In this document: one piece after another, positions 929 through 62,566 of the stretch | Numbering within the stretch: the first letter of the stretch is position 1 | Layout: each line of letters opens with the position of its first letter | Assembly: GCA_965222445.1 (NCBI GenBank) | Contig: CBDCTY010000002.1 | Coordinates: 255,824 to 319,823, forward strand | Source: Dehalococcoidia bacterium | GTDB taxonomy: Bacteria > Chloroflexota > Dehalococcoidia > Lucifugimonadales > CAJWER01 | Length of the DNA: 64,000 bases | Direction of reading: 5' to 3' | The notes under the pieces: model-generated | The model's database searches: none | Told to the model about the DNA's origin: nothing | What the model saw: only the letters and a program-made list of their open reading frames with translations | Translations under genes and position numbers: made by a program

Positions 929-1091
929 TATAGCGGCTCACGCGGTCCCGGAGCCGTCCAGTCGGAAGTGAGGGGGAAGCACGGCAGGGATACGGTGGGC
1001 GGCGTCACCCTTGCATCGACCCGCAACAGTTCAGTCTTCGTGGGGTATGTACAGAGTCCCCTCTCGGTCGGGCCGAGAGCCCCCATCCTAA

Positions 1092-1215
1092 TACCAAGTC
1101 ACCGTGATGCCGCCGTATATGTGCGGCCAGGGAGTGGGTTCCCGCCCCGTATCGAGTACGGGGCAGGCTCTTCGCGGGAATGACGGCTTTACGGCGCGCT
1201 CAAAACGAAATGGTA
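1092..1215 (+). mobile_element. MITE-A, long form (124 bp), alpha hairpin
   Basis: TACCAAGTCACCGTGATGCCGCCGTATATG...core with CCCCGTA-TCGAG-TACGGGG...TACGGCGCGCTCAAAACGAAATGGTA. Flanked by TAA (1089-1091) and TAA (1216-1218). Confidence 0.9.
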
Positions 1216-1275
1216 TAACATTCCCTCTCACGGGGAAGGTGCAAGTCAGGGGGTAGCGACAAGAGGTCGCGGGGG

Positions 1276-2466
1276 CTACTGGCCCTCGCCGCCGCAGAGG
1301 ACCATCTGGGAGCCGTCGGCGTTGGTATGCACTTCGTAGGGCGTGCCCGCTAGATCGAAGACCAGCTTGTAGCCGGGGGTGATGACCTGGGCGTAGCCTT
1401 CACCCTCCTTGGGGCAGCCAAGGCTGGCGTCGGGCCATTGCACGCTCTCTGTGCTGTCGAGTATGAAGCCACGCTCGCCCACGCCGACCTCGTCGGCAAG
1501 CAGCTTCCGCGCCGCCGTCTCGATGCCGATCTCCTGGCACTTCGATTCGAGCTGGGCCAGCTGGGAGTCCTCGCTGCTGCCGGACGGAGCTTCCGCCGAC
1601 GTGACGGCGCTCTTCCTGATGTCGTCGAAGACCGACCCCAGGTCCGAGGACGAGCCTACGAACAAGGTATTCTCGGCGAGGTGCAGCCTGTAGGTCTCGA
1701 GGGAGCGCTGGAATGTGTAGAACTCGGGGTCCTGCTCCAGGGCGTCGGCGAATATCTTGACCGCCTCAGCCTCCCCGCACCCGCGGATGATGTCGGCGTC
1801 GCGCTGGGCCTCGGACCGTATGACCACGGCCTGCCTATCGACCGACGCGCGCTTCTCAAGGTCGGCCTTGGTGCCAGCGGCGCGCTCCCGGTCAGCGATG
1901 CGCTGGCGCTCGGCCTGCATCCTCTGGTAGATGCTGTTGGCGATCTCGCCGGGGAAGTCGGCGCGCTTCATTCGCACGTCCACTATCTGGATGCCGAAGT
2001 CCAGCAGCTTGGGCTCGACGGCGTCCCGCACACGGTTCATGACCAACTCGCGGCTCGTCTGAATGATCTCCGACTGGTCGTCGAGACCGATCTCCCGGCG
2101 GAGCTCGGACGCCACGATGTCGATGGCCCGGGAGGCCGCGCGGGACTCCGTCCTGAGCGTCTCCACGAACCTGAGCGGGTTGGTGATGCGCCCCCTGGCG
2201 TATACGTCGATCACGAGCCGCTTCTTGTCCTTAGTAAGCAGCGAGTCGGGCGGAGCGTCGAATACCAGGAGACGCCTGTCGAGATATGCGACGCGCTCGA
2301 TGAACGGCGTCTTGACGAAGAGCCCGGGGCGCTCGATCTGCCTGACCGGCTCGCCAAACCGGGTCACCACGGCAACCTGGGTCTCGTCGACCACGAAGAA
2401 TACCTGGGGGCCTACGATCCCCGCGGCCAGGACCGCGATCACTATTAGTGTTGCTATGAGTTTCAT
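1276..2466 (-). CDS. hflC: HflC-like SPFH/band-7 protease modulator with ~110-aa Cys-containing C-terminal extension
   Basis: N-terminal TM helix then SPFH domain (VVTRFGEP..., coiled Ala/Arg/Glu-rich region). Lies immediately downstream of hflK on the same strand. Confidence 0.8.
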   Translation of the reverse strand: MKLIATLIVIAVLAAGIVGPQVFFVVDETQVAVVTRFGEPVRQIERPGLFVKTPFIERVAYLDRRLLVFDAPPDSLLTKDKKRLVIDVYARGRITNPLRFVETLRTESRAASRAIDIVASELRREIGLDDQSEIIQTSRELVMNRVRDAVEPKLLDFGIQIVDVRMKRADFPGEIANSIYQRMQAERQRIADRERAAGTKADLEKRASVDRQAVVIRSEAQRDADIIRGCGEAEAVKIFADALEQDPEFYTFQRSLETYRLHLAENTLFVGSSSDLGSVFDDIRKSAVTSAEAPSGSSEDSQLAQLESKCQEIGIETAARKLLADEVGVGERGFILDSTESVQWPDASLGCPKEGEGYAQVITPGYKLVFDLAGTPYEVHTNADGSQMVLCGGEGQ

Positions 2467-2473
2467 CGGCCGC

Positions 2474-3490: not shown

Positions 3491-3571
3491 ACCGCTCCTG
3501 ATTATCGCCCCGCAGGTTCAACAACTATTCTAGCACACCACCGTCCGTCGAAAGTGTGAAGGCGGCCCAAT

Positions 3572-3629
3572 CCGTCGTTCCCGCGCAGAGCCTGCCCCCC
3601 CGAGCAGTCGGGGGCGGGAACCAATCCCC
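3572..3629 (-). repeat. Solo core hairpin module, reverse orientation (beta-like)
   Basis: CCGTCGTTCCCGCGCAGAGCCTGCCCCCCCGAGCAGTCGGGGGCGGGAACCAATCCCC is the reverse complement of the GGGTTCCCGCC-CCCCCGACTGCTCGGGGG-CAGGCTCT.CGCGGGAA.GACGG module. Confidence 0.75.
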
Positions 3630-3693
3630 GGCCGCCGCCATAAGATCTGGGCGGCCGAGCAATTCCATCAGTTGGTGGGGCTTCCCTGTCTTA

Positions 3694-4252: not shown

Positions 4253-4352
4253 TACCAAGTCACCGTGATGCCGCCGTATATGTGCGGCCAGGGAGTGGGT
4301 TCCCGCCTTCGCGGGAATGACGGATTTACGGCGCGCTCAAAATAAATTGGTA
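4253..4352 (+). mobile_element. MITE-A, short form (100 bp, lacks inner hairpin)
   Basis: TACCAAGTCACCGTGATGCC...GGGTTCCCGCCTTCGCGGGAATGACGG...AAATTGGTA. Flanked by TTA (4250-4252) and TTA (4353-4355). Confidence 0.9.
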
Positions 4353-6726: not shown

Positions 6727-6887
6727 CCCGGGCTCTCGTCCTCTGTAGTATCGTCATTGGCGTCGGACCGGAGGGCGCATGACCCTGGACCATCGACGCG
6801 GGAAGCACCATGGCCTTGCGAAAGCCGCACAAGGGTATGATATGGGTGCTGCTGCCACACCCCGGCGTAGGCTAGGATCCAAGGGCC

Positions 6888-6944
6888 GGGGATGGGTTCC
6901 CGCCCCGTATCAAGTACGGGGCAGGCTCTTCGCGGGAACGACGG
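6888..6944 (+). repeat. Solo core hairpin module (alpha variant, loop TCAAG)
   Basis: GGGGATGGGTTCCCGCCCCGTATCAAGTACGGGGCAGGCTCTTCGCGGGAACGACGG. Possibly bounded by short inverted repeats GCCACACCCC (6853-6862) and GGGGCGTGGC (6947-6956). Confidence 0.8.
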
Positions 6945-6951
6945 ATGGGGC

Positions 6952-7878
6952 GTGGCGCGGCTGTTTTCGTGGGAACGGACTCACTTGAAGGCGGTCCTGC
7001 TGGCCGCACGTCCGAAGCAGTGGACGAAGAACCTGCTCATCTACGTCCCCCTGTTTTTCACGGCGGGCGACGCGTGGGATTTCTCGGACGCGGCTGCGGC
7101 CCTGTCGCTGTTGGTGAAGGCGACCGTCGCCGTCGTCCTCTTCTCCCTCGTGTCCTCGGGCCAGTACATGGTCAACGACGTCCTCGACGCCGACGAAGAC
7201 CGGCGGCACGCGAGGAAGCGCCGCCGTCCAGTGGCGTCGGGCGCTCTAGCCGCTCCGGTTGCGCTCACGTTGGGCGGCGTGCTGGCGGCCGCAGGGATCG
7301 CCGGCGCTTTCGCGCTCGAACCCGACTTCGGCTGGGTGACTGCCATCTACCTTGCGACGACTGCGGCCTACTCGTTTGCGCTGAAGAGGATCGTGCTGCT
7401 GGACGTGTTCGTAATCAGCGCCGGGTTCGTGCTCAGGACCGTGGCGGGGGCCGCGGTGCTGGACGTACCCGTGTCGCCCTGGCTATACACCTGCGCCGGG
7501 TTGGGCGCGCTCTTCATCGCCCTGTCGAAGCGGCGGAGCGAGCTCGTAAACGCGGGTAACCGCGCGCCCGAGCAGCGGGAGACCCTCGACCTTTACTCAC
7601 GCCCGCTGCTGGACCAGCTCATCGGAATCTCAGCGACCGCGGCGCTGCTGACCTACGTCCTGTACACATTCACCGCACCGAACCTGCCGGACGACCACTC
7701 GATGATGCTGACCGCGCCCTTCGCCGTCTACATCCTTTTCAGGTACATCTACCTGGTGCAGAGGCGCGGCGCAGGCGAAAACCCCGAGGACGTGTTCACC
7801 TCCGACCTGCCCATCATCGTGGCGGTCGCCCTGTGGCTCCTCACCGCCCTGGCGGTCCTGCTGAGGGCGGCCGGCTGA
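6952..7878 (+). CDS. UbiA-family prenyl/phosphoribosyl transferase (decaprenyl-phosphate phosphoribosyltransferase-like)
   Basis: Contains RPKQWTKNLL, NDVLDADEDRRHARKRRRPVASG and multiple TM helices. The track ORF starts at 6892 inside the repeat module. A GTG at 6952 or TTG at 6985 is a more plausible start. Confidence 0.75.
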   Translation: MARLFSWERTHLKAVLLAARPKQWTKNLLIYVPLFFTAGDAWDFSDAAAALSLLVKATVAVVLFSLVSSGQYMVNDVLDADEDRRHARKRRRPVASGALAAPVALTLGGVLAAAGIAGAFALEPDFGWVTAIYLATTAAYSFALKRIVLLDVFVISAGFVLRTVAGAAVLDVPVSPWLYTCAGLGALFIALSKRRSELVNAGNRAPEQRETLDLYSRPLLDQLIGISATAALLTYVLYTFTAPNLPDDHSMMLTAPFAVYILFRYIYLVQRRGAGENPEDVFTSDLPIIVAVALWLLTALAVLLRAAG

Positions 7879-15975: not shown

Positions 15976-16125
15976 ACTCCGCCAGCCGGGTCGACGACCC
16001 GCACGACCCTTGGATCGATGGCCAGGGCCTCCCGCGCCTGCAGCATGGCCCACAGCGCCTTGCCGGGCGAGCCGCAGCCCCGGACCTCCACTATGGCGAC
16101 GAGCCGTTGGCCCAGATCGCCCGCG

Positions 16126-17560
16126 TCGGGCGCACCCAATGGGTGAAAGCACCAATCCCCGCGCCACGCTCCGTTTCGACCGACGTGTACGGTTGGAATT
16201 TCGTGGCGCTACCATCACCTCGGACGCTGGGCTGCTGGCCTGCCGCGAGTTGGACGATGCACTGGGACTGACGCAGACGGCGAATGAGTGTCTGCAGGAG
16301 AGTCGGGGCGGTCGTAACGTGCAGCACCGATTGGTGGGCCTTCTCAGGCAGTCGGTGTACAGTCGTCTGGCGGGCTACGAGGATACCAACGACGCTGAAC
16401 GGCTGGCCCAGGACCCGACGATGCGAATCATCGTTGGACGGCGAGACATTGACAGACCGGCCGCCAGCACCAACACCATGAGCCGGTTCGAGACCGAGGT
16501 GCTTACCCAGGACGGCAACGTGGAAGGGTTGGATCGACTGAACGCTGAGTGGGTGGACGGAGCTATGTCCCGCACGCCGCACCGGCGGGTGATCTTGGAC
16601 ATGGACAGTTCGGAGAGTCCGGTACATGGAGAACAGGAGGGATCGTCGTACAACGGTCACTTTGGGAGCATGTGCTATCACCCTTTGTTCGTGTTCAACC
16701 AGTTCGGTGACTGCGAGGGCGCGATGCTGCGTGCGGGGAACGTAGATAGCGCTCACAGGTGGCGTGACGTATTGGATCCGATCCTGTCCCGCTACGGGGC
16801 GACAGGAGTGCGCCGGTACTTTCGCGCCGACGCCGCATTCGCCAAGCCGGACATCTATGAGTACCTGGAGGAGCGGCGAGTCTTCTACGCAATACGGCTG
16901 CCGAGCAACAAAGTGCTGCAATGGGAGATCGCTCCGTTGCTATACGACCTGTGGGGAGGCCGCCGAAACGTCCAGTGATCCGATACGATGACTTCTGGTA
17001 TCGTGCTGAGAGTTGGGACCGCGCTCGGCGGGTGGTGGCCAAGGTGGAGTGGCATAGGGGAGAGCTGTTCCCTCGGGTGGGCTTCATCGTCACGAACATG
17101 ACGGCTGGCCCCGAAGGAGTGGTGCGATTCTACAATGGCAGAGGTACAGCCGAGCAGTGGATCAAGGAAGGCAAGTACGCCCTGAACTGGACTCGGCTGT
17201 CGTGCCATCGGTTCGTGGCCAACCGGGTGAGACTGTCTCTGTTCATTCTGGCGTACAACCTTGGGAACTTCCTTCGCCGGTTATGTCTGCCCAAGGCGGT
17301 CAGGCACTGGTCGCTGCGGAGCGTGCAGGTCAAGCTGATCAAGATGGGAGGCCGTCTGGTGCGGCACTCCCGGCGATTAATCTTTCAGTTGTCCGAAGTG
17401 TCGGTTCCTCGAAGGTTGTTCCAGGGAGTGTTGGATCGTATCGGCCGGTTATCGCCGGCGCCAAGCTGAGGGAGGGTACAACCACGATCTTGCCAAGGGG
17501 GAGAGCGCTCCAGGGAGTCGGCTTGTCTTCAATGCGCTTTCACCCCATTGGCGGGGGCCC
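16126..17560 (+). mobile_element. IS1380-family insertion sequence (compact, ~1.43 kb); boundaries approximate
   Basis: Imperfect inverted repeats GGGCGCACCCAATGGGTGAAAGC (16126-16150) and GCTTTCACCCCATTGGCGGGGGCCC (17536-17560) enclose the transposase. The ATG lies inside the left repeat. Confidence 0.6.
16139..17469 (+). pseudogene. IS1380-family DDE transposase, split by a frameshift near 16940-16947
   Basis: The two track ORFs (16010-16978 and 16921-17469) together read as one IS1380-type protein: ...FRGATITSDAGLL...ILDMDSSESPVHGEQEG..YNGHFG...AIRLPSNKVLQ then RPVGRPPKRP..SWDRARRVVAKVEWH.GELFPRVGFIVTN...YNGRGTAEQWIKEGK. IS1380 transposases are normally a single ORF. Confidence 0.75.
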
Positions 17561-26527: not shown

Positions 26528-26651
26528 TACCAAGTCACCGTGATGCCGCCGTATATGTGCGGCCAGGGAGTGGGTTCCCGCCCCGTATCGAGTACGGGGC
26601 AGGCTATTCGCGGGAATGACGGCTTTACGGCGCGCTCAAAACGAAATGGTA
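26528..26651 (+). mobile_element. MITE-A, long form (124 bp), alpha hairpin
   Basis: Near-identical to the 1092-1215 copy. Flanked by TAA (26525-26527) and TAA (26652-26654). Confidence 0.9.
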
Positions 26652-28628: not shown

Positions 28629-28752
28629 TACCAAGTCACCGTGATGCCGCCGTATATGTGCGGCCAGGGAGTGGGTTCCCGCCCCGTATCGAGTACGGGG
28701 GAGGCTCTTCGCGGGAATGACGGTTTTACGGCGCGCTCAAAACGAAATGGTA
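28629..28752 (+). mobile_element. MITE-A, long form (124 bp), alpha hairpin
   Basis: Head-to-tail with the previous copy. Flanked by TAA (28626-28628) and TAA (28753-28755). Confidence 0.9.
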
Positions 28753-30959: not shown

Positions 30960-31082
30960 TACCAATTTGGCGTGATGCCGCCATATATGTGCGGCTAGGG
31001 AGTGGGTTCCCGCCCCCGACTGCTCGGGGGCAGGCTCTTCGCGGGAATGACGGCTTTACGGCGCGCTCAAAATAAATTGGTA
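30960..31082 (+). mobile_element. MITE-A, long form (123 bp), beta hairpin
   Basis: TACCAATTTGGCGTGATGCCGCCATATATG...CCCCCGA-CTGC-TCGGGGG...AAATTGGTA. Flanked by TAA (30957-30959) and TAA (31083-31085). Confidence 0.9.
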
Positions 31083-39252: not shown

Positions 39253-39450
39253 TACCAATTAGGTGTGATGCCGCCATATAAGGGCTGAAGGAGGTGCCCG
39301 GCTTGCCCATAGCCACCCGGTCTGTGTGCAACCGCCGGGGACTGGATGGGGGACGGTTCCTGCGGGGCAGGAATCCCGGTTCAAGGCCGGAATGACGGAT
39401 TGCTGAACTGCGTCACGTTCAATTCACGGCGTAGTCAAAACGAAATGGTA
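39253..39450 (+). mobile_element. MITE-B (198 bp)
   Basis: TACCAATTAGGTGTGATGCCGCCATATA...ACGGCGTAGTCAAAACGAAATGGTA. Shares both ends with 3694-3846. Flanks TAA/TTA (discordant). Confidence 0.75.
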
Positions 39451-39651: not shown

Positions 39652-39869
39652 CAGGGCCTTTCCAAAGTCGTCACAATGCCATATCGTCACAATGCCATAA
39701 GAGGGGGATCTGGGAAATCCCTTCTCCCTCGGTGGGAGAAGGTTAGGATGAGGGTGACTGACTTGTATCGGTCAACGCCCCCTCACCCCCGTATCGAGTA
39801 CGGGGCAGGCTCTAACCCTCTCCCGCGAAGGGGCCCGCGAAGGGGAGAGGGAACTTTGGAAAGGCCCTA
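39652..39869 (+). mobile_element. Family-C TIR element (218 bp), complete copy
   Basis: Termini CAGGGCCTTTCCAAAGT and ACTTTGGAAAGGCCCTA match 16 of 17 as inverted repeats. 9-bp direct repeat GGGGATGAC at 39643-39651 and 39870-39878. Contains the alpha hairpin at 39787-39805 and the empty TTA site at 39743-39745. Confidence 0.8.
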
Positions 39870-39928
39870 GGGGATGACGCCCAAGGTCTGAATCGGTGTA
39901 CCATAGGCTTGGAGAGTGAGGAGGGAAT

Positions 39929-40741: not shown

Positions 40742-40865
40742 TACCAAGTCACCGTGATGCCGCCGTATATGTGCGGCCAGGGAGTGGGTTCCCGCCCCGT
40801 ATCGAGTACGGGGCAGGCTCTTCGCGGGAATGACGGCTTTACGGCGCGCTCACAATGAATTGGTA
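40742..40865 (+). mobile_element. MITE-A, long form (124 bp), alpha hairpin
   Basis: Flanked by TTA (40739-40741) and TTA (40866-40868). Confidence 0.9.
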
Positions 40866-40893
40866 TTAGTAGGCGGCGATCCACATCCACCCC

Positions 40894-46035: not shown

Positions 46036-46074
46036 ACCGCCTCCGTTTTCGCGTCCAGAGACCCTTGCGTAACC

Positions 46075-46365: not shown

Positions 46366-47207
46366 TGTGCGAGGTCTCCATCCACCGGGCGTATCGGAAG
46401 GCCCCGGCTGCTGAGGTATTCCTTCACTTCGGCCACCCTCAGCTTGCCGAAATGGAAGATGCTGGCGGCCAGCACCGCGTCGGCCTTACCGGTGCTCGCA
46501 GCCTCGTAGAGGTGCTCTGCCTCTCCCGCGCCGCCGCTGGCGATGACCGGCACGTCTACAGCTTCGGATATCTCGCGGAGCAGCTCCAGGTCGTACCCGG
46601 TCTGCTGACCGTCGGTGTCCATACTCGTTACCAGGAGCTCGCCCGCGCCTAGATCGGCTGCGCGTACTGCCCACCGTACAGCGTCCACTCCGGTGGGCCT
46701 CCTTCCGCCGTGGGTGTAGACCTCCCACACGGAGTCCTCGTCCAGGGCAAGGCTGGTGTCGGCGGGCGTCGGCGAAGCCTCGGTGGCATCCTCCAAACCG
46801 GGGGCGACTCGCTTCACGTCCATCGCTACGACGATGCACTGGCATCCGAAGTGGTCCGACGCCTCCGCGATTAGGCTAGGATCCCGGACAGCGGCCGTAT
46901 TTAGAGATACCTTGTCCGCCCCGGCCTCCAGCAGGCCCCTCACGTCCTCGACCGAGCGGACGCCTCCACCCACCGTCAGGGGTATGAATACCCGCTCGGA
47001 GACCTGCTTGAGCACGTCCATCATGATCTCGCGCGAGTCGGAGCTGGCCGTGATGTCCAGGAACACCAGCTCGTCCGCGCCCTCTCGATCATAGAAGGCC
47101 GCAAGCTCGGCCGGGTCGCCTGCGTCCCTGATGTCGACGAAGCTGACGCCCTTGACGACGCGCCCCCGGTCGACATCCAGGCACGGAATGATCCTCTTGG
47201 TCAGCAT
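46317..47207 (-). CDS. hisF: Imidazole glycerol phosphate synthase cyclase subunit, with repeat-derived ~20-aa C-terminal tail
   Basis: [20 protein letters not shown]...RDAGDP...A..Y...[13 protein letters not shown]. The last residues, ...[15 protein letters not shown], are encoded by the family-C/core repeat. Confidence 0.85.
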
Positions 47208-47932: not shown

Positions 47933-48022
47933 CGTCTACCCCATAAGAGTTGGACGAACCCGCCAAGCTTGACAAGTGAGGAGGATATGGTAATCATTGA
48001 CGTGGACTCTCCACAAGTCTAA

Positions 48023-48146
48023 TACCAAGTCACCGTGATGCCGCCGTATATGTGCGGCCAGGGAGTGGGTTCCCGCCCCGTATCGAGTACGGGGCAGGCT
48101 CTTCGCGGGAATGACGGCTTTACGGCGCGCTCAAAATAAATTGGTA
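48023..48146 (+). mobile_element. MITE-A, long form (124 bp), alpha hairpin
   Basis: Flanked by TAA (48020-48022) and TAA (48147-48149). Confidence 0.9.
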
Positions 48147-48266
48147 TAACCCAACGAAGCGTGAGCTTGGCATGGATGGGGGCCTCACGCCCCCCTTGAG
48201 GCTCACGATAGGGTTTCGGCGACTTGTGGAGAGTAGCCAACATCCTCGCCACAAGGGGGCTTTATC

Positions 48267-49547
48267 GTGCTGAAGCCCAAAACTCTCGCAGCGATTGGCA
48301 TAATCATCGCACTGATGGTCGGGGGCGGTGTGGTGATGGGCCAGCAGACTTCGGCCTGCATCACCGGAGGGGCTGTCGCGTCCGGCAACGCCGGTCTCGC
48401 CGCCGACTGCGAGGCCCTGTTGGATTCGAAGGATACCCTTCGAGGCACCGCGGACCTCAACTGGTCGTCCTCTCTCTCCATAAGGCGGTGGGATGGCGTC
48501 CGCCTTGGGGGAACCCCCGAGCGGGTGACCATAATCAGGCTTCAGAAGAAGGGGCTGAGCGGGCAGATACCCGCGGCCCTGGGCAGGCTGGATGCGCTGG
48601 AAGAGCTCTGGCTGTATGACAATGAGCTCACCGACGCCATTCCCCCCGAGATGGGGAACCTGACCAACCTGCGCTGGCTGTTCGTCTCCACCAACAGTCT
48701 GAGCGGGCAGATACCGGAGACGTTGAACAGCCTGACCCTGGACAGGCTATGGCTCCAGCAGAACGACTTCACGGGCTGCGTGCCGTACAACCTCACGCAG
48801 ACAAGAGAGTACAAGGTGGACAGGGGGCTCCCTGCGTGCGCGCTGCTTGGGAACGCCACGCCGACGCCTGCGCCCCCTGGCGCCACGCCAACGCCCGTAC
48901 TGCCGCAGCCGACACCGTCCGGCGACAGGTTGGGAGCAATCGAAGGCAGGCTCAGCGATGTCGAGAGAAGAGTTGCAGCCCTAGAGGCTGATATGGCTCG
49001 ACTTCTGGCTACACCAACTCCAACTTCGACTCCGACACCAGGCCCTTCGCCGACGCCGGAACCTACTCCAACACCTACTCCAACACCTGATCTTGGTACC
49101 CAACAGCTACCCGTACCATTTGGGACTACCTTCACCATCCAGAACTCCACCACCGATCATTGGGAGTTCACGATCCTCAAGACTACCCCAGACGCTACAA
49201 GTGATATCCTCAACCATAGTCGGTACAATGACCCTCCAGCGCCTGGAAATCAGTTCTACATGGTGAGAGTGAGAGCCAAGTACCTGGGCACAGGTTCCGA
49301 AAAGTTCGGATACTACAGCAGGTTGAAGTCTCTGGGCGAAGGCGGCGTAGTCTATTCATGGCTTAGGAACAACTGTGGATCAGTTCCAGATAGACTCCCC
49401 GATCCCGAGCTATTCAAGAACGGACAGATCGAAGGCAATCAGTGTTGGGAGATTGCCTCGTCGGACGCCGATTCCCTGGTTCTAATTGTCGAACCAGACA
49501 GCAGTAGACACAGCCGGCATTGGTTCTCGCTCACACCGTCGCCATAA
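48267..49547 (+). CDS. Secreted leucine-rich-repeat protein with PT linker and C-terminal beta-sandwich-like domain
   Basis: Signal/anchor LAAIGIIIALMVGGGVV. Plant-type LRRs (LSGQIPAALGRLDALEELWLYDNELTDAIPPEMGNLTNLRWLFVSTNSLSGQIP). PT-rich linker. The 3' third has lower GC. Confidence 0.7.
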   Translation: MLKPKTLAAIGIIIALMVGGGVVMGQQTSACITGGAVASGNAGLAADCEALLDSKDTLRGTADLNWSSSLSIRRWDGVRLGGTPERVTIIRLQKKGLSGQIPAALGRLDALEELWLYDNELTDAIPPEMGNLTNLRWLFVSTNSLSGQIPETLNSLTLDRLWLQQNDFTGCVPYNLTQTREYKVDRGLPACALLGNATPTPAPPGATPTPVLPQPTPSGDRLGAIEGRLSDVERRVAALEADMARLLATPTPTSTPTPGPSPTPEPTPTPTPTPDLGTQQLPVPFGTTFTIQNSTTDHWEFTILKTTPDATSDILNHSRYNDPPAPGNQFYMVRVRAKYLGTGSEKFGYYSRLKSLGEGGVVYSWLRNNCGSVPDRLPDPELFKNGQIEGNQCWEIASSDADSLVLIVEPDSSRHSRHWFSLTPSP

Positions 49548-49682
49548 CAAGCTGGGGAAAGGGGCAGGGCGTACTGTAGTAGTTGGGCAAGGGAGAGTCC
49601 TCCGACGGCGGCGATGCCCCGGCGGCCTGCCGCCGGCTAGGGGTGGTGTGCTTCACGACAATGCGCCGGCTCCCGACATCAC

Positions 49683-51877: not shown

Positions 51878-52084
51878 TCGGGCACCCGGCTACCGCCACA
51901 AGTCGCCGGGCATGATACGTCTCATGAACCCGTCGAACATGGGGACGGTAAATGAAGTATCTCCATGACTTGGGCTCCATATCATGCCCTTCTCGATCAG
52001 TTGGCTGCGAGTGGGAGCCAGAGACGTTACGCGGCGGCCCAGAACACCGGCAATATCGCCCGAGCGATGAGGCCCGGCGCCTAG

Positions 52085-52897
52085 GGCCTGTTCACACTAA
52101 TTAACCAGATCATGTTACAATCCGGGAATGGAAATCACAGAAGCTCAGTACCAACTTATTGCACCGATCCTTCCCGTTCAACGTGGCAACGTCAGCTTGC
52201 CGAACCTGCAAGTTCTCAACGCCATCTTGTATGTCGCCGAGCAGGGCTGCAAGTGGCGGGGGTTGCCGCCTCGATTTGGCAACTGGCACACTGTATACAT
52301 GCGGATGAACCGTTGGTCAAAGAATGGGGTGCTCGACCGGATATTCGAATATCTGCAACGAGAGCAGATAGTGCGCATCAAGCTCGAGGCGGTTTCGATG
52401 GACAGCACCATCGTCAAGGTCCATCCCGATGGTACGGGTGCGTTAAAAAAAACGGACCCCAGGCCATCGGCAAGTCCCGTGGCGGTTGGACCACCAAGAT
52501 TCATATGGTTGCCGCGGATGCTAGAACAGCCGTAACGTTCTCCCTCTCTCCCGGACAGGCCCACGACGCGCCAGAGGGGCGGAAGTTGTTGACACGCCTT
52601 GGCTCACAGGGCCAGAAGCCGTTCCTGATAATGGACCGGGCATACGAGGGGAATGAGACCCGCCAACTGGCGTTGGCGCTGGGGTTCACGCCGGTTGTTC
52701 CGCCCCTGAGCACCCGAGTTGACCCTTGGGAGTACGACCGGGAGATGTACAAGAGGCGGAACGAAATCGAGCGGTTGTTCCGTCGGTTGAAGGGGTTTCG
52801 TCGCATCTTCTCTCGCTTTGAGAAGCTCGACACGCTCTTCCTCGGGTTCATCCTGTTTGCCCTCATCTTCGATGCGCTACGTTAGTGTGAACAGGCC
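52085..52897 (+). mobile_element. IS5-family insertion sequence (813 bp)
   Basis: Perfect 16-bp terminal inverted repeats GGCCTGTTCACACTAA (52085-52100) and TTAGTGTGAACAGGCC (52882-52897). Flanked by CTAG on both sides (52081-52084, 52898-52901). Confidence 0.9.
52128..52885 (+). CDS. IS5-family transposase (DUF4096-type N-terminus + DDE), two frames joined by predicted -1 frameshift
   Basis: orfA reads MEITEAQYQLIAPILP...LNAILYVAEQGCKWRGLP..FGNWHTVY.RMNRW. orfB reads ...GGWTTKIHMVAD...LIMDRAYEGNETR...RNEIERLFRRLKGFRRI. The frames overlap at an A8 run (52445-52452), and orfB is in the -1 frame. Confidence 0.85.
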
Positions 52898-53901
52898 CTA
52901 GTTGGGCCATGGCTCGAAGGTATATCTTCTCTGCGGGGGTAAGCCGGTCAAACCTGACCCGGAAGAAGCTCTCGTCGAGGTCGGCGACGGCCTGGCGGGA
53001 AGCGTCCTCTACATCCACCTCTGTGATGGGAGAGCTCTCGGCCATGTCCCACACATGCTTCCCCCACTCCTGCAGGAAGTATGGATAGCATTGGGTTTGG
53101 GAAACGATGGCGTCGAGTGCGCGGGGCTCTATCCGCACCCCTTCGTCTTTCGCGGGCTTGGCAATCGCAAGCCTGGCGTCTTCAGGTGACAGCGCTCCGA
53201 TCTCAGTGAACTCGAATAGCCTCTCGGCGTAAGATTTGGCTCTCCCCACGCGGCCCCGCACCTGGGGCAGTCCCGCCCCAACCATGGTCACGGGGAGCCG
53301 ACGCTGAGATGTCCGGTGCAATGCCGTGATCAATGCCGCGAGCTCTTCCTCCTTCACATATTGGAACTCGTCGATGAAAAGCGTCAGGCAGCTTTCGTCC
53401 GCCCTAGCGGCATTTCCGACAACCTCGAGCAAGTCCTGCAGGTCGGCTTCCAGGTCGCCGTTGTCGGCTAAGCCGGGTTCAGGTTCGAAGTCCAGTCCGA
53501 CTTCGATGTCCTGAAACTTCACCTTCAGAGCTCCGGCAAAGCCGGCAAGTCCTCGAAGAGCTCGCTGCGCCAGCTGCTTTGCGGCCTCTCTATTCGAGAG
53601 CTTCAGCAAGGCCAGACGTAGCTGGGGCGCCAAAGTCGCGGGTAGGGAGCGGCCTTCAGGCGCTTCGATCCGCAGGGCACAGATGCCGTTCGCCTCGGCG
53701 TCCTCTCGGATACGGTCCAGCAGCACAGTCTTCCCAACGCCCCGCAGACCCACCATCATCACGCCCTTGCTGGGGCGCCCGATCCTGGTCCTCTCCAGTG
53801 CGATCCGCGCGGTCTCGCGAACCTCGTGGCGGCCGGCCAGCTCTGGGGGCTGTGTGCCGGCTCCTGGCGCATATGGGTTGCGAATCGGGTCCATGGGGTC
53901 G

Positions 53902-53929
53902 ATTATAGGGAGTTTATCCCAGTTTACAA
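53902..53929 (-). promoter_or_regulatory. Sigma-70-like promoter for the ATPase gene (possibly leaderless transcript)
   Basis: Reverse strand: TTGTAA, 16 nt, TATAAT, then 7 nt before the ATG at 53894. Confidence 0.35.
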
Positions 53930-54084
53930 GGAAAGCCTAATATGGCTAACTTTGCTATAAATGGTCGGAACGGGCGGTAGAGGTCGGCGATTGGGAGGGA
54001 GTTTACCCCAGTTTACAAGAAAGCCCTAACATGGCTAACTTTGCTATAAATGGTCAGAACGGGCGGTAGCGGTTGGTGATCGGC
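53908..54084. repeat. Tandem ~89-bp duplication including the last codons of nadE
   Basis: Unit 1 (53908-53996) and unit 2 (53997-54084) both read GGGAGTTTA.CCCAGTTTACAAG.AAAGCC.TAA.ATGGCTAACTTTGCTATAAATGGTC.GAACGGGCGGTAG.... Unit 2 holds the true nadE 3' end. Confidence 0.85.
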
Positions 54085-55805
54085 ATACGGCGGTCCCGGC
54101 CGAAGCTGCGGGGCGTGATCTTGATGCCTGGCGGCGCCTGGCGGCGCTTGTACTCGCTGCGGTCGACTAGCATCACCACATGCTCGACGACGCTACGCTC
54201 GAACCCCAGGCCAACAATCTCGTCGAAGCTCAGGTCGTCCTCGACGTAAGCCTTGAGGATGGGGTCCAGCACCTCGTAGGGCGGCAGGCTGTCCTCGTCT
54301 TTCTGGTCCGGGCGCAGCTCCGCGCTGGGCGGCTTCGTCAGGACAGCCTCGGGTATCACGGGCCTGTCCCCGAGCGAGTTCCTGTACTCCGCGAGTTCGT
54401 ACACCAGTGTCTTGGGCACGTCCTTGATGACCGCGTAGCCGCCTGCCATGTCGCCGTATATCGTCGCGTATCCGACGGCCATCTCGCTCTTGTTTCCGGT
54501 CGTGAGGACTATGCCGCCGAACTTGTTGGCGAGGGCCATCACCAGCATCCCTCGGGTGCGCGACTGCAGATTCTCCTCGGCAATGCCGTGCTCACCGCCC
54601 CTGAAACGAGGCTCCAGGGCGTCCAGGTATGCGGAGAACGGCCCCTCTATGGGGATCTCCCACAGCTCCAGGCCCAGGCCCTCAGCAAGGCCCCGTGCGT
54701 CCAGGACCGACCCCTCCGATGAGTACCGGGAAGGCATCGCCACCCCAATGACGTTGTCCGGGCCAAGAGCATCGGCGGCTATCGCGGCCACGACGCTGGA
54801 GTCGATCCCTCCCGACAGCGCTACGTACACCTGCTCGAAACCCGTCTTGTGGACGTAGTCGCGCGTGCCGAGCACCAGGGCCGCGTACACCTCGGCGGCG
54901 CCGTCCAGCTCCGTAGGAGCGTTCGCGGCGCTCAGGGCCCTGCGAGGGCCTGAGGGCGCGTCCGACACGTCGACGTGGACGGCCTTGCCCACGTCATCCA
55001 GGCTTCCCAAGCGCTCGCTCCTCGGCCTCGTGTCGCGGAGCCTCGACCTGAATACCGCCCCGACCTCGAGATCCGCTACGACCAGGTCCTCCTCGAACTG
55101 CCGCCCCCTGGCGACCTCCTCGCCCAGCGGGTCGTGGATGATGGAGCCTCCGTCGAAGACCAGCTCGTCCTGGCCACCTACCATGTTCACGTAGGCGACG
55201 AACAGCCCGTTGTCGACGGCCCTCACCGACAGCATCCGCTCCCGCGTCCCTCGCTTGCCAGCGTAGAAGGGCGATGCGCTGACGTTGACGATCACCTCAG
55301 CCCCGGCGGCCCGCTGCACCACCGTCGGCCCCACCGAAAACCAGATGTCCTCGCATATGTTCACGCCGACGGGCGTACCGGCAACGGAGAAGACCGGACA
55401 CTCGGTACCGGCCTGGAAGTACCGCTCCTCGTCGAAGACCCCGTAGTTCGGCAGGTATATCTTGTGGTACTTGCCCACGACCTCGCCGTCGTACATGACC
55501 GCCGCGGCGTTGTAGACGTAGGAGTTCGCGTCCGCGAACCCGACCACCACGGCAATGTCTCTGGAAGCCGACGCAACCTGCCGCATCTTCCGGATGTTCT
55601 CCTGGATGAACTGCGGCTTGAACAGCAGGTCCTCAGGCGGGTATCCGGGGATGGCGAGCTCTGGGAACGCAACCAGGTCAGCGCCCACGTCGCGGGCGCG
55701 GTCTATGTAGTCGATGATCCTTCTGGTGTTGCCGTCCAGGTCGCCGACCGTGGGGTTGGTCTGTGCCAGGGCGATTCGAAATGTGCGCACGGCGTCTCCG
55801 CCCAT
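54054..55805 (-). CDS. nadE: Glutamine-dependent NAD+ synthetase
   Basis: N-terminal nitrilase/CN-hydrolase domain (FRIALAQTNPTVGDL..N...I, FPELAIPGYPPEDL, NICEDIW) plus C-terminal NAD synthetase (ALSGGIDSSVVAA). Start taken at the ATG at 55805; the longer track ORF is unsupported. Confidence 0.85.
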   Translation of the reverse strand: MGGDAVRTFRIALAQTNPTVGDLDGNTRRIIDYIDRARDVGADLVAFPELAIPGYPPEDLLFKPQFIQENIRKMRQVASASRDIAVVVGFADANSYVYNAAAVMYDGEVVGKYHKIYLPNYGVFDEERYFQAGTECPVFSVAGTPVGVNICEDIWFSVGPTVVQRAAGAEVIVNVSASPFYAGKRGTRERMLSVRAVDNGLFVAYVNMVGGQDELVFDGGSIIHDPLGEEVARGRQFEEDLVVADLEVGAVFRSRLRDTRPRSERLGSLDDVGKAVHVDVSDAPSGPRRALSAANAPTELDGAAEVYAALVLGTRDYVHKTGFEQVYVALSGGIDSSVVAAIAADALGPDNVIGVAMPSRYSSEGSVLDARGLAEGLGLELWEIPIEGPFSAYLDALEPRFRGGEHGIAEENLQSRTRGMLVMALANKFGGIVLTTGNKSEMAVGYATIYGDMAGGYAVIKDVPKTLVYELAEYRNSLGDRPVIPEAVLTKPPSAELRPDQKDEDSLPPYEVLDPILKAYVEDDLSFDEIVGLGFERSVVEHVVMLVDRSEYKRRQAPPGIKITPRSFGRDRRMPITNRYRPF

Positions 55806-55883
55806 AGCTGGGGATGCGGGCGCCCGGAGTATAGCATAGGGCCGTACAATGGCCGAACTGGACGCAGGCATAGGAGGAGAAGC

Positions 55884-56786
55884 ATGAGCCGTTCGAACGC
55901 CGTGGTTGAACGCACCAGGGGCCCGGTGGCGCCCCTGAACATCTGCTTCGACGACGACGCGTCTGTGGACTTCGGAGCCGTGCGGAGCTACGTCGACTGG
56001 CTGTGCGAGAACGGCGCGCCGATCTTGCTGCTCACCTACGGCAGCAGCGAGTACGCCTACCTGTCGGATGACGAAGTGTGGCGGCTCACTGCCGAGATCG
56101 CGGACGTCAACGGGGGGCGCGCGCTCTTCGTCGCCGCGACAGGCTGGTGGAAGACCACGACGTGCCGTGACTACCTCAGGCATGCCGACGCGGTGGGAGC
56201 GGACGCGGTGAAGATACAGCTGCATCCGAGCTTCCCGACAGACCGGGATGCGTACCTCCGATTCTTCGATCTCATCGAGCCAGCGTCGGACATCCCGCTC
56301 TGGCTCCTAGATCCCCCTCTCGCCACCGGCATCGAGCTGGCCGCGCGGGACAACGTGGTCGGCGCCAAGGTGCACGACACGTCCGACTACCACACCATGA
56401 CGCGCGAGACCCGCAACCTGAACTTTGCGACGGTCTGCGCCGGGCAGATGCGAAGCATGGTGTTCGGCTACATGCTCGGGTCGCCTGCCTACCTGTGCAC
56501 CGTCGCGCCGTTCGCCCTCCGAATCGCGTTCGACTTCTTCGACGAGCTGGAGGCACGGCAGTACGACGACGCAATGGCGATGGCCTTTCGTTACGAAGAC
56601 CCCTGGTTGAAGGCGGCCCTGGAGGTCGGATGGATACACGCGATCAAGGAGGCCGTCCGACAGCGCGGCCTGTACCCTAACAGCAATCCATGCCCGCCCC
56701 AGCCGGGTACGACGCGGGAGCAGAGCGCGAAGGTCGCCGAGGCCATGGAGGCCGTGTTCGGGCTGCTTCCGGTTTCGCCGTTCTGA
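55884..56786 (+). CDS. Dihydrodipicolinate synthase/N-acetylneuraminate lyase family aldolase-like protein
   Basis: 300 aa from the ATG at 55884, after an AGGAGG RBS. Weak DapA-family resemblance (PLNICFDDDASVDFGAVRSYVDWL...GA..ILLL...SE...LS..E). Function uncertain. Confidence 0.5.
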   Translation: MSRSNAVVERTRGPVAPLNICFDDDASVDFGAVRSYVDWLCENGAPILLLTYGSSEYAYLSDDEVWRLTAEIADVNGGRALFVAATGWWKTTTCRDYLRHADAVGADAVKIQLHPSFPTDRDAYLRFFDLIEPASDIPLWLLDPPLATGIELAARDNVVGAKVHDTSDYHTMTRETRNLNFATVCAGQMRSMVFGYMLGSPAYLCTVAPFALRIAFDFFDELEARQYDDAMAMAFRYEDPWLKAALEVGWIHAIKEAVRQRGLYPNSNPCPPQPGTTREQSAKVAEAMEAVFGLLPVSPF

Positions 56787-58243: not shown

Positions 58244-58380
58244 CGGGGCCTTTCCAAAGTTGGCTCCCTGCGGAAGGGACATACCCTACCGCCCACCTGG
58301 ATTCCCGCCCCCGACTTCTCGGGGGCAGGCTCTGCGCGGGAATGACGGTATGTGGTTTATGGGACAATGGAAAGGCCCTG
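58244..58380 (+). mobile_element. Family-C TIR element (137 bp) with beta-type core, inserted in the proB-proA spacer
   Basis: Termini CGGGGCCTTTCCAAAG and CAATGGAAAGGCCCTG. Direct repeat GACCTACACA (extendable to 15 bp GACCTACACACGGGG) at 58234-58243 and 58381-58390. Core at 58298-58348. Confidence 0.75.
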
Positions 58381-59681: not shown

Positions 59682-59753
59682 AGTCGACCGGCAGCCCCTA
59701 CCGATAACGGAGTGTTGGGACGGGGCGGACCACATGCAATCAGAGGCACCCTA

Positions 59754-60068
59754 ATGGCAAGATTCTTCTTCGAACGAGAGTGCAGGACCCCGTATTCAGA
59801 GTGTTACACGGTCCTGGACGACGACGATCCAATAGGCCGCGTGGACATACACTTCGCCGAGGTGATGATCCACTCCACGGTGAGCATCGGCGAGAGCCTC
59901 ACGAACGACGACATCCAGGACCTGATCGACGCAATCGACCGTGAGCTGCTGGACGCTATGGGCATCGTAAAGCAGGAGCTCGTGATCCACGTGCACCAGG
60001 GGCGCGACCTGGGCGTCTTCACCACGCGGGGCTTCGAGGGCAACGGCGGCCACGAGCGCCTGAACTAA
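59754..60068 (+). CDS. Hypothetical protein (104 aa)
   Basis: MARFFFERECRTPYSECYTVLDDDDPIGRVDIHFAE.... Its TAA stop (60066-60068) doubles as the left target duplication of the following MITE. Confidence 0.45.
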   Translation: MARFFFERECRTPYSECYTVLDDDDPIGRVDIHFAEVMIHSTVSIGESLTNDDIQDLIDAIDRELLDAMGIVKQELVIHVHQGRDLGVFTTRGFEGNGGHERLN

Positions 60069-60191
60069 TACCAGTTCGCTGTGATGCCGCCGTATATGTG
60101 CGGCCAGGGAGTGGGTTCCCGCCCCCGACTGCTCGGGGGCAGGCTCTTCGCGGGAATGACGGCTTTACGGCGCGCTCAAAACGAAAAGGTA
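60069..60191 (+). mobile_element. MITE-A, long form (123 bp), beta hairpin
   Basis: TACCAGTTCGCTGTGATGCC...CCCCCGACTGCTCGGGGG...GAAAAGGTA. TAA on both sides; shares TAA 60192-60194 with the next copy. Confidence 0.9.
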
Positions 60192-60194
60192 TAA

Positions 60195-60317
60195 TACCAA
60201 GTCACCGTGATGCCGCCGTATATGTGTGGCCAAGGAGTGGGTTCCCGCCCCCGACTGCTCGGGGGCAGGCTCTTCGCGGGAATGACGGCTTTACGGCGCG
60301 CTCAAAACGAAATGGTA
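60195..60317 (+). mobile_element. MITE-A, long form (123 bp), beta hairpin
   Basis: Head-to-tail with the previous copy. Flanked by TAA (60192-60194) and TAA (60318-60320). Confidence 0.9.
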
Positions 60318-60347
60318 TAACTCCCCGCTTGGGCTGAGCGCCGGGCA

Positions 60348-62357
60348 TCAGGACGCGTGGACGAAGAGCCCCACCCTGCGCCACAGGTCCACTCCCTGCA
60401 GCCGCAGAGTGACGACCTCGCCGGAGGCGACAGATCTCGGCAGCTCCGCCCGGACGCGGAAGGGGAACTCCACCAGCTCCAGGAGCGCGGTGCGGCGGCC
60501 TCCGCTGTCCAGCACGACCGCCTCGAACAGGTCCGGGCCGCCTGGAGGCATCCGCGCGCCCTCGAGATACTTCAGGAACCAGTACCTCTTCCGCCCCTCC
60601 TCGATCCTCGACAGCTCCCTCATCTGCACCTCGGCCCGCTGTGCGACCGATTCCACCTCGTCCGGCGCGTACAGGGGTTTGCCATCGGCCAGGAAACCGC
60701 CAATCTGCCGCTGTACGATCAGGTCGGGGTAGCGCCTCAGAGGGGACGTCGCCTGGAGATACGCGCTCACGCCGAGCCCATCGTGCGCCATCGGCTCCGT
60801 GGATACTCGCGCCGCCTGCATCCGTCGGGCGACGCTGTAGCGCGTCATAAGCGGCGTGGCCCGCTCGTCGAGCCCAGACAGGCCCGGCATGTCCGAAAGG
60901 TCCGGGCGCCGCTGGGACCGGTACACGGCGGGCAGCCCGTTCTCGGAGCAGAACCGGGCAAGGAGCGAGTTGCACAGTATCATCAGCTCGGCCACTATCT
61001 GATTGCCGGGCGACGAGCGGTCCCGCAGGCTGACCTCGACCTCCCCCGACGCCCGGACCTTGACGCTCATCTCATGCTGGTCTATGTTGACGGCCCCCTG
61101 CTTCTCGCGCTTGAGTCGAAGGGCGTTGGCTAGGCGGCACAGCCCCTCGATCATCGGGCGCCGGCGCCCCCCTGTCTGCACCACCGCATCGACCTCCTCG
61201 TATGAGAGGGCCGCGGCGCTCCTGATCGTCGACGGCACCACATGCCAGCTAGACACGTCTCCTTCTCCGGTCAACTCCGCAACCAAGCTGACCGCCAGCC
61301 GCTCCTCGCCCGGGTCCAGGCTTCCCGCGCCCCTCGTAAGGGCATCGGGAAGCATCGGTATGGTGCGCTCCGGGAGGTAGAGGCTCGCCATGCGCCGGTC
61401 CGCCTCCCGGTCCATCGGCCCCGCTCGAGGCGCAAGCGCCCCCGCGTCCGCGATGTGCACTCCGAGCCGGTAGCCGGACTCCAGGACCTCCAGGGAGAGG
61501 GCGTCGTCCCTGTCGGTCGTCTCCTCGTCGTCGATCGTGACCGCGTCGAGGTGGGTGAGGTCCTCCCTGTCCGACCCGCTCGGCGCGAAGGCCGCGGCTA
61601 TTGCCTGTCCCTCCTCCAGCGCCTCGGACGGGAAGTCCGAACGAATCCCCGCCCTTCGGAGCTCCAGGGACTCGTCCGGGCCGAATACGCCGGAGCTCAC
61701 CAGCATCTCGAAGCAGGCACGCTGGAGGTCGCGAGTCGCCGGCGACGACGCCTCCACCAGCTCTCTGGCCACCCTGCGGCGGGGAAGGTCCTCGCCGTGG
61801 ACGGCGTAGCCGACCAGCACATCGACCAGGGACTCCTGGTGGGGGCTCATAGCCTCGGGGAGCCGGCCTGCGGACATGGCATCGACCAGCCCCCGCGCGT
61901 CCCGCGCGTTCTCGGCCTCGCGCCGCCGCCTCTCCAGCAGGTTCTCATGGTCTTCCCGCGTTCGCGGCCTGTACTTCCCCGTGCCGCTCAAGAAGAGGTC
62001 GGTCGCTCGTTCTAGGCAGAGGAGCAGCGCCGTGAGTTCCAGGGCCCCCGGACTCGCTGGCCAGTAGAGCTCGGCCAGATCCTCCAGCGAGGACTCCTCC
62101 TGCTCGTCGGTAAGGACGTCCCACACCTCTGAGAGGTCGATCTCACTGGATGCGTCCCTGGCGTTGTCGCAAAACTCCTCGAAGCGCTCCGCCTCATCCG
62201 CCAGAACGCCGGTAGTGAGCATGACCCGCTCGGAAGGAATTCGGGCAACCTTATTCCTACCGAGGAGAACGGAAACTCGCCCGTTCCGCTCTTCACGGAA
62301 ACGGACGATTGTCACCCCACCACTCAGGCGGGCAACTAGGATTTCGCCCGGAAGCAT
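60348..62357 (-). CDS. rnr: RNB-domain 3'-5' exoribonuclease (RNase R/RNase II family)
   Basis: 669 aa with the RNB catalytic block (AVTIDDEETTDRDDALSLE), later RNB motifs and a C-terminal S1-like region. Confidence 0.8.
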   Translation of the reverse strand: MLPGEILVARLSGGVTIVRFREERNGRVSVLLGRNKVARIPSERVMLTTGVLADEAERFEEFCDNARDASSEIDLSEVWDVLTDEQEESSLEDLAELYWPASPGALELTALLLCLERATDLFLSGTGKYRPRTREDHENLLERRRREAENARDARGLVDAMSAGRLPEAMSPHQESLVDVLVGYAVHGEDLPRRRVARELVEASSPATRDLQRACFEMLVSSGVFGPDESLELRRAGIRSDFPSEALEEGQAIAAAFAPSGSDREDLTHLDAVTIDDEETTDRDDALSLEVLESGYRLGVHIADAGALAPRAGPMDREADRRMASLYLPERTIPMLPDALTRGAGSLDPGEERLAVSLVAELTGEGDVSSWHVVPSTIRSAAALSYEEVDAVVQTGGRRRPMIEGLCRLANALRLKREKQGAVNIDQHEMSVKVRASGEVEVSLRDRSSPGNQIVAELMILCNSLLARFCSENGLPAVYRSQRRPDLSDMPGLSGLDERATPLMTRYSVARRMQAARVSTEPMAHDGLGVSAYLQATSPLRRYPDLIVQRQIGGFLADGKPLYAPDEVESVAQRAEVQMRELSRIEEGRKRYWFLKYLEGARMPPGGPDLFEAVVLDSGGRRTALLELVEFPFRVRAELPRSVASGEVVTLRLQGVDLWRRVGLFVHAS

Positions 62358-62440
62358 AGTCCCTCGATTCTAGCATCCTGCCCGAAGTGGGGAGAGATCA
62401 GGCGGGGGGCTCTTACCTCTTCCCCGAGGGGGAAGACTGA

Positions 62441-62563
62441 TACCAATTTGGCGTGATGCCGCCATATATGTGCGGCCAGGGAGTGGGTTCCCGCCCCCGA
62501 CTGCTCGGGGGCAGGCTCTTCGCGGGAATGACGGCTTTACGGTGCGCTCAAAATGAATTGGTA
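62441..62563 (+). mobile_element. MITE-A, long form (123 bp), beta hairpin
   Basis: TACCAATTTGGCGTGATGCCGCCATATATG...GAATTGGTA. Flanked by TGA (62438-62440) and TGA (62564-62566). Confidence 0.9.
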
Positions 62564-62566
62564 TGA

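Follow-up and report, generated by a model that had tools for sequence, protein, structure and literature searches.

Sixteen copies of one short sequence lie in the 64-kb stretch of a Dehalococcoidia bacterium genome analysed here (the window: 64,000 nucleotides of contig CBDCTY010000002.1), and they raise the question of what kind of element this is, how it reached its sites and why all of its copies point the same way. We propose that it is, with high probability, a family of non-autonomous DNA transposons (MITEs, or miniature transposable elements with inverted repeats) that duplicate a TNA target and are most likely moved by a DDE enzyme of the IS5 / PIF-Harbinger type. The 3-bp TNA target-site duplication is proven, because one empty site is found within the window, others are found in relatives, and the two flanks agree in 33 of 41 copies.

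The core of the element, GTGATGCCGCCRTATA, is matched 16 times in the window with at most two mismatches, where 0.06 matches are expected by chance, at the positions listed in an earlier reading made without database searches (the sequence-only reading). That reading gave all copies the ends TACCA and TGGTA, which holds for the 16 starts and for 15 ends but not for copy 60069 (copies are named after their first nucleotide), which ends in AGGTA. Seven copies are 124 bp long, four are 123 bp, three are 100 bp, and there is one copy each of 153 and 198 bp. The MITE (100-198 bp) contains no open reading frame (ORF) of its own, although neighbouring ORFs run into copies. The family is abundant also in a sister genome, the metagenome-assembled genome (MAG) 'Dehalococcoidia bacterium isolate 55646556-...' (CBDHCU01), an assembly other than that of the window. 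One MAG locus (L085) is syntenic to window 21.9-29.3 kb at ~93% identity. Window ~28.7-60 kb has its syntenic counterpart, at 86-93%, in the his region, both in the MAG (L096) and in two other assemblies (L097, L098); as the two window segments correspond to different MAG contigs, rearrangements separate these genomes. The 16 copies, one unoccupied target and one example of the inner hairpin are listed below, with flanks given as left/right.

1092..1215, + strand: A-type copy (MITE-A), 124 bp, flanks TAA/TAA
3694..3846, + strand: B-type copy, 153 bp, only the ends in common with MITE-A, flanks discordant (TTA/TAA)
4253..4352, + strand: A-type copy, 100 bp, without the inner 24-nt hairpin, flanks TTA/TTA
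26528..26651, + strand: A-type copy, 124 bp, flanks TAA/TAA, ortholog at sister MAG locus L085
28526..28625, + strand: A-type copy, 100 bp, first of a head-to-tail tandem pair with one TAA in common
28629..28752, + strand: A-type copy, 124 bp, second of the tandem pair with 28526
30960..31082, + strand: A-type copy, 123 bp, variant inner hairpin, flanks TAA/TAA
34875..34998, + strand: A-type copy, 124 bp, flanks discordant (TTA/TAA)
39253..39450, + strand: B-type copy, 198 bp, flanks discordant (TAA/TTA)
39743..39745, + strand: unoccupied TTA target in the paralogue of the repeat that hosts copy 46152 (empty site)
40742..40865, + strand: A-type copy, 124 bp, flanks TTA/TTA, surrounding 0.6 kb missing in L098
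40796..40819, + strand: the 24-nt inner hairpin and its tail (CCCGTATCGAGTACGGGGCAGGCT) in one copy, enclosed by the TTCCCGC/GCGGGAA hairpin as part of its loop
43602..43701, + strand: A-type copy, 100 bp, flanks TTA/TTA, exact empty sites in L096 and L098
46152..46275, + strand: A-type copy, 124 bp, flanks TTA/TTA, nested in another repeat between hisF and hisIE
48023..48146, + strand: A-type copy, 124 bp, flanks TAA/TAA, with a leucine-rich-repeat gene between hisA and hisH
60069..60191, + strand: A-type copy, 123 bp, AGGTA end, first of a tandem pair, ORF 59712-60068 stops at the left TAA
60195..60317, + strand: A-type copy, 123 bp, second of the tandem pair with 60069, flanks TAA/TAA
62441..62563, + strand: A-type copy, 123 bp, flanks TGA/TGA

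T-N-A stands on both sides of all 16 window copies, and its middle base is the same left and right in 13 of them, compared with 7.6 expected from shuffling (p=0.005). The sequence-only reading had taken this agreement as a 3-bp duplication, and it extends beyond the window: when 25 further complete copies gathered from the sister genome are added, the 33 concordant copies among the 41 read TAA (21), TTA (9), TGA (2) and TCA (1). All four middle bases of TNA thus occur among them, with TAA and TTA making up 30 of the 33. Shuffling of the flanks predicts agreement in 18 of 40 tested pairs, and none of 200,000 shuffles reached 33. One and the same right-end variant precedes TAA, TTA, TGA or TCA, in step with the left flank, and the right-hand TNA does not track element subtype. 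In the rebuilt targets TNA is never preceded by T (C stands there in 18 of 32) and is followed by A in only one of 32, the target being a roughly palindromic site of the C-TNA-G type.

Empty sites show the same duplication directly. A repeat of the window is present both at 39651-39813, without a MITE, and at 46074-46368, with one; the former reads GAAGG-TTA-GGATGAGG (TTA at 39743-39745), and its filled counterpart reads GAAGG-TTA-(TACCA...TGGTA)-TTA-GGATGAGG, the MITE occupying 46152-46275. Likewise, at the place of copy 43602 both L096 and L098 read ...CTGC-TTA-CTACGCG... with a single TTA. Three window copies, 3694, 34875 and 39253, have discordant flanks. At the locus of copy 34875, L098 has kept TTA-CATTGAGTTG-TAA, two TNA sites separated by 13 bp that are both spanned by the window copy; we read this as the possible outcome of two insertions collapsed by recombination or of an adjacent deletion. 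To the left of copy 39253 lie the first 8 codons of a gene paralogous to that at 41110; the homology stops exactly at the junction of TAA and TACCA, and the right flank is unrelated. Recombination or deletion thus explains two of the three discordant cases (34875 and 39253).

The comparison with relatives also dates the insertions. In the syntenic stretch the window has seven copies (30960, 34875, 39253, 40742, 43602, 46152 and 48023), L097 and the aligned part of the MAG have none, and L098 has three that differ in position or form, two of them at sites where no window copy lies. Relatives of 87-93% identity lack at least eight of the window copies at the corresponding sites, and the locus of copies 28526 and 28629 exists in three states, with no copy in L097 (ACA-CAAT-GACG), one in the MAG and two in tandem in the window. 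As at least eight copies are missing in relatives and a single locus carries 0, 1 or 2 tandem copies, the family has moved recently; the mobilisation that the sequence-only reading had proposed is thereby borne out by presence/absence polymorphism. Copies 26528 and 28526 are found in MAG locus L085 as well, and therefore the family predates the split and stayed active in each lineage.

The element is built of conserved ends around an exchangeable interior. The first ~28 nt (TACCAA-N7-GTGATGCCGCCRTATA) and the last ~26 nt (ACGGCG-N3-TCAAAA-N5-TGGTA) are conserved, the end sequences being TACCAANTNNNNGTGATGCCGCC on the left and ACGGCGNNNTCAAAANNNNNTGGTA on the right. These terminal inverted repeats match at 17-19 of 26 positions, with TACCA and CGCCGTA perfect; the value of 17 given by the sequence-only reading is that of copy 1092, and 19 is reached with the commonest right end. 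The mismatch between the two ends is itself conserved, and the ends pair with each other in the predicted fold. The 153- and 198-bp copies and the B-type copies of relatives have only the ends in common with the A-type, namely ~28 bp on the left and ~26 bp on the right. The A-type interior is a hairpin of the form TTCCCGC-loop-GCGGGAA (module H) followed by TGACGG, and the stem CCGGC/GCCGG of the B-type is a paired change of the CCCGC/GCGGG of the A-type. The loop of module H has 4 nt in the 100-bp class and an extra small hairpin plus tail of 24 or 23 nt in the 124- and 123-bp classes, occurring in two forms that differ by paired changes (CCCCGTA..TACGGGG-CAGGCT and CCCCCGA..TCGGGGG-CAGGCT). 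This nested hairpin explains the discrete 124/123- and 100-bp classes, which had been recognised correctly in the sequence-only reading; no duplication is evident around its 24-nt form.

Module H and the small hairpin are found outside the MITE as well. Solo copies of module H or of the 24-nt hairpin lie at 6884-6951, 35668-35719, 40564-40625, 3565-3635 (- strand), 39787-39811 and 46321-46345, and 8 of 9 solo module copies are oriented like the MITEs. As single strands the two strands of the MITE are predicted to fold into a long imperfect hairpin of -30.5 and -30.1 kcal/mol (z about -3.3 to -3.8). The right end together with a TAA duplication reads TGGTATAA(T), resembling an outward extended -10 box (e.g. 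28621-28631 and 60187-60197).

What a simple account of such transposons leaves unexplained is the strand polarity. All 16 window copies are on the + strand (14 independent loci, two-sided p=1.2e-4), which the sequence-only reading had not remarked on, and at least eight of these same-strand loci are lineage-specific insertions. Repeat pairs in the window are direct in 234 cases vs 11 inverted, the inverted ones involving the module-H copy at 3565-3635 and two matches between sulfatase paralogues. Solo copies of module H are oriented like the MITEs of the same block by 25 to 7 (p=0.002), many of them being part of two other MITE families, whose ends and duplication lengths are different. In MAG and window together, neighbours less than 10 kb apart are co-oriented in 24 of 26 pairs, and over hundreds of kb of the MAG the orientation flips repeatedly. 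All 16 window copies are intergenic; six are sense to the neighbouring genes, four antisense, five between convergent genes and one between divergent genes, and therefore transcription does not set their orientation.

A link to replication is suggested by the MAG blocks, in which the top strand of the MITE is the G-rich strand in 17 of 21, the GC skew at third codon positions (GC3) differs between co- and anti-oriented genes (p=0.009), and 60% of coding bases run in the direction of the MITE. The skew trend of the window is opposite to that of the MAG and not significant (p=0.08), and the window contains no tRNA genes to serve as orientation markers. One B-type copy of L098, at the TTA that also flanks window copy 34875, has the opposite orientation. 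For insertion sequence (IS) families, a bias of orientation with respect to replication has been documented, in some genomes also for IS5-type elements (PMC3971601). Our search of the literature found no report of strict co-orientation for MITEs. To our knowledge it has not been described for classical bacterial MITEs.

The polarity may stem from replication-coupled insertion followed by rearrangement, from strand-specific retention of module H, or from oriented local hopping. One possibility, less likely than not, is an orientation imposed by chromosomal polarity, in which either a DDE-type transposase would insert MITEs one way relative to the fork or module H would be tolerated or useful on one strand only. 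If either version is true, these MITEs are strand-aware, unlike classical bacterial MITEs.

An orientation relative to the fork would also follow if the element moved as a single strand by means of an HUH (Y1) enzyme, like the PATEs derived from IS200/IS605 or the repetitive extragenic palindromic (REP) elements driven by RAYT. The 16 copies on one strand whatever the gene direction, the co-orientation of 24 of the 26 close pairs, the hairpin-rich anatomy and the nested 24-nt hairpin without evident duplication are all in line with such movement, and IS200/IS605 elements are the classic case of replication-linked orientation (PMC3971601, PMC5027513). We nevertheless regard it as very unlikely, as the right-hand TNA covaries with the left one through A, T, G and C independently of subtype, whereas a 3' end borne by the element would be constant. 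The element has true terminal inverted repeats, its target is palindromic rather than a fixed 5' tetra- or pentanucleotide, the L098 copy at the TTA of window copy 34875 is oppositely oriented, and no Y1 transposase is encoded among the window ORFs tested.

The stable fold (-30.5 kcal/mol, z = -3.3) and the intergenic placement of the copies might instead point to structural or regulatory repeats maintained by the host, such as REP or bacterial interspersed mosaic elements (BIMEs) or a family of small RNA genes, that were spread by recombination. The inner hairpin does recur in other repeat families with its stem kept through paired changes, and conservation is higher in orthologous copies than in their flanks. 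Against this view stand the exact target duplications and the empty sites, the equally good folding of both strands (-30.5 vs -30.1 kcal/mol) and an orientation unrelated to neighbouring genes. In addition, Rfam gave no match to the element at gathering score, nor any at E<=1 over 39200-40900, and promoter- or terminator-like sites in the copies show no excess over shuffles; a host-maintained repeat is therefore highly improbable as well. The least credible account, that of an IS630/Tc1-mariner-type MITE which duplicates TA and whose TNA results from misplaced boundaries, has in its favour that TAA and TTA flanks can be re-parsed as TA by a one-base boundary shift, but it fails at the TGA/TGA and TCA/TCA copies, requires different element ends at TAA and TTA sites, and with CCA...TGG plus a TA duplication predicts empty sites unlike those seen.

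We return to a TNA-duplicating MITE moved by a DDE enzyme. The enzyme class, judged from just the target and the duplication length, is most likely the IS5 / PIF-Harbinger superfamily. Elements of the IS1031 group recognise three nucleotides (PMC2516522), and canonical Harbinger elements make 3-bp duplications and are related to IS5 (PMC12730594). Enzymes that use TNA targets do live in this lineage, as an IS5-family IS of the MAG has inserted in TNA beside a MITE. This IS (927 bp, L085 2656-3582) carries orfA/orfB (DUF4096 plus DDE_Tnp_1; NF033580) between GAG...CTC ends (GAGCCTATCCGAYAAC) and is found truncated at L001 5973-6843. The L085 copy occupies precisely the TAA to the left of the MITE orthologous to window copy 26528, where its flanks are TTA/TAA, the window reading CAAC-TAA-TACCA and the MAG CAAC-TTA-(IS)-TAA-TACCA.

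Several points weigh against this assignment. The window, 23 sister-MAG blocks and the loci of the three relatives contain no transposase-coding element with the ends of the MITE. The ends of the IS5-family elements at hand, GAGCCTATCC... and GGGCCTGTTC..., are unrelated to the MITE; TACCAAG... has no similarity to GAGCCTATCCGA of the MAG IS or to GGGCCTGTTCACAC of an IS in the window. TACCA is also unlike the GG or GAG ends that we take to characterise IS5 subgroups. The 16:0 orientation is not predicted by a symmetric DDE reaction. Finally, orthologous copies 26528 (122 of 124 identical) and 28526 (95 of 100) are better conserved than the flank (368 of 401), with 7 differences in 224 nt vs 33 in 401 (p=0.016), which hints at conversion or constraint beyond selfish spread.

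The wider searches for a partner gave no match in metagenome and viral collections (28-nt left end) or among plasmids (blastn with the element). A scan of a genome collection with a 16-mer returned at least 95 matches, mostly due to chance, and no partner with these ends was among the matches listed. A protein search with OrfB of the MAG IS5 element returned other IS5 transposases, none from MAG contigs. Looking up three window ORFs as exact proteins gave no record, so the collection consulted does not contain the genome of the window. Left ends without a right end (L021, L022, L036, L040, L083 and L088) were considered as long elements and proved to be truncated or mosaic copies. Two long repeats of the MAG were likewise rejected as partners, being an IS5-family and an IS4-family IS, neither with TACCA ends.

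The sequence-only reading saw no partner with these termini in the window, which still holds; it needs the correction that two transposase loci with different ends are present, the other window ORFs tested against Pfam and NCBIfam being housekeeping or accessory genes. One is an IS5-family IS at 52084-52898 (815 bp; ORF 52112-52885, NF033580) with ends GGGCCTGTTCACAC and GTGTGAACAGGCCC, which duplicated TA within CTAG and is missing at this place in relatives, and was therefore inserted recently; its ends (GGGCCTGTTCAC) resemble what we take to be those of plant Tourist/PIF elements. The other is an IS1380-family transposase gene at 16010-17469, split into two overlapping ORFs by a frameshift or as a pseudogene. 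In the sister MAG, a 1.47-kb repeat that is 99.5% identical between L010 100-1569 and L063 1-1470 encodes an IS4-family transposase, and is a possible partner of a MITE family with long duplications.

Based on our data we propose that the conserved, unequal ends, which flank an exchangeable interior without coding capacity, may serve as binding sites for a transposase supplied in trans. Such an enzyme would cut a roughly palindromic target, (not T)-TNA-(not A), with a stagger of 3 nt and insert the MITE, after which repair would duplicate the TNA. Insertion into the TNA beside a resident copy has yielded head-to-tail tandems, and flank agreement has been lost in places through recombination or deletion. 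The one-strand orientation would be set at insertion or soon after it by chromosomal polarity, possibly by the direction of replication.

The element behaves as classical MITEs with an IS5 / PIF-Harbinger type of target do, being short and non-coding, with inverted ends, a duplication of fixed length, empty sites with a single target, and insertion polymorphism. IS5-family elements of the IS1031, IS427 and ISL2 types duplicate 2-4 bp, typically TNA. With these and with PIF/Harbinger-Tourist elements the family has in common a 3-bp T-N-A or T-W-A duplication in a roughly palindromic site. It resembles IS5-superfamily MITEs, which are short non-coding elements with terminal inverted repeats and many copies close to genes, in having several subfamilies with only the ends in common and in that the IS5-family IS of the sister genome uses the same TNA sites. 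It differs from them in that its two ends are markedly unequal (17-19 of 26), its copies are strand-polarised, and its TACCAA... ends are unlike both the IS5-family ends found here and the GG/GAG or GGGCCTGTTTGG-type ends we presume for that group. Tourist-type elements have GGGCCTGTTTGG-like ends. On the target side the family behaves as they do, with mostly TWA duplicated, C before TNA favoured and A after it avoided; its ends are not of their type.

Classical bacterial MITEs such as Correia/NEMIS of Neisseria, RUP of Streptococcus pneumoniae, ERIC/IRU and cyanobacterial Nezha are likewise intergenic elements of ~100-200 bp with inverted ends, a short target duplication and a long-hairpin fold, and form length classes by internal insertions or deletions. 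As far as is known, they derive from IS630, IS4 or other families and duplicate TA or longer targets, whereas the copies studied here duplicate TNA and are strictly co-oriented. The inner hairpins, and they only, recall REP, BIME and REPIN sequences as short G+C-rich imperfect palindromes with an asymmetric tail, present in several contexts and with stems kept by paired changes; unlike those, they sit inside MITEs of at least three families, and no RAYT gene, conserved GTAG head or inverted-pair (REPIN) arrangement is seen here. IS200/IS605 elements and PATEs are similar in an orientation that is coherent along the chromosome and independent of transcription (PMC3971601). They differ in lacking inverted repeats and duplication and in inserting 3' of a fixed short sequence, whereas the proven duplication of the MITE varies with its target.

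As for the surroundings of the copies, two head-to-tail tandem pairs (28526/28629 and 60069/60195) have a single TAA in between. The insert with copy 46152 separates hisF from hisIE; the three relatives lack all of it and have the two genes 1-2 bp apart. The copy is the innermost part of a nested composite at 46057-46380, in which an outer GAGACC...GGTCTC element contains an element with the GGGCCTTTCC end, which in turn contains the MITE. A 1.7-kb insert at 47944-49682 between hisA and hisH, consisting of copy 48023 and the leucine-rich-repeat gene on the opposite strand, is also missing in the three relatives. Copy 30960 and a Uma2 gene together separate the genes for hydantoinase A and B, which are adjacent in L097, where nothing of this insert is present. 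Paralogous genes for Uma2-family endonucleases (30928-31676 and 39929-40480, 73% DNA identity) each lie beside a MITE copy. A 6.3-kb island at 34777-41104, of lower G+C content (0.56 over 36-40 kb), carries genes for DUF3800, PIN_4 and Uma2 proteins along with five MITE copies, three belonging to the family studied here and two to another; L097 lacks the island and has the Fic and alpha/beta-hydrolase genes side by side.

Other small elements lie close by. A third MITE family is represented at 58249-58380 by a 132-bp element with ends GGGCCTTTCCA.../...TGGAAAGGCCC, module H inside and a flanking 15-bp direct repeat, GACCTACACACGGGG; it is missing between proB and proA in the three relatives, and its end also opens the repeats at 39651 and 46074. 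A further family of ~144 bp (36247-36390, 39500-39643 and L001 ~6852-6985) has ends CCCAGATCCACCACCT, module H and apparent 5-7 bp duplications. The large ORF 22852-26301 contains long Pro/Thr-rich repeats with a 36-42 nt period (23614-23972 and 24974-25248) and differs from the MAG far more than the sequence around it does. At 53907-54083, two tandem 88-bp units, 89% identical, lie beside the gene at 54054-56225.

Our results describe a recent burst of a MITE family in uncultured Dehalococcoidia, which has left one copy per 4 kb in the window, most of those in the compared part being missing from close relatives. It has reshaped operons, with two inserts in the his operon and one in the hydantoinase A/B pair, and has produced tandem arrays and nested small elements. 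In annotation, spurious ORF extensions and breaks of synteny can be traced to the copies. What exceeds the routine is the one-strand orientation of independent insertions, together with the modular, nested build, and such an orientation in elements that make target duplications is a lead on whether a DDE-type reaction couples to the direction of replication.

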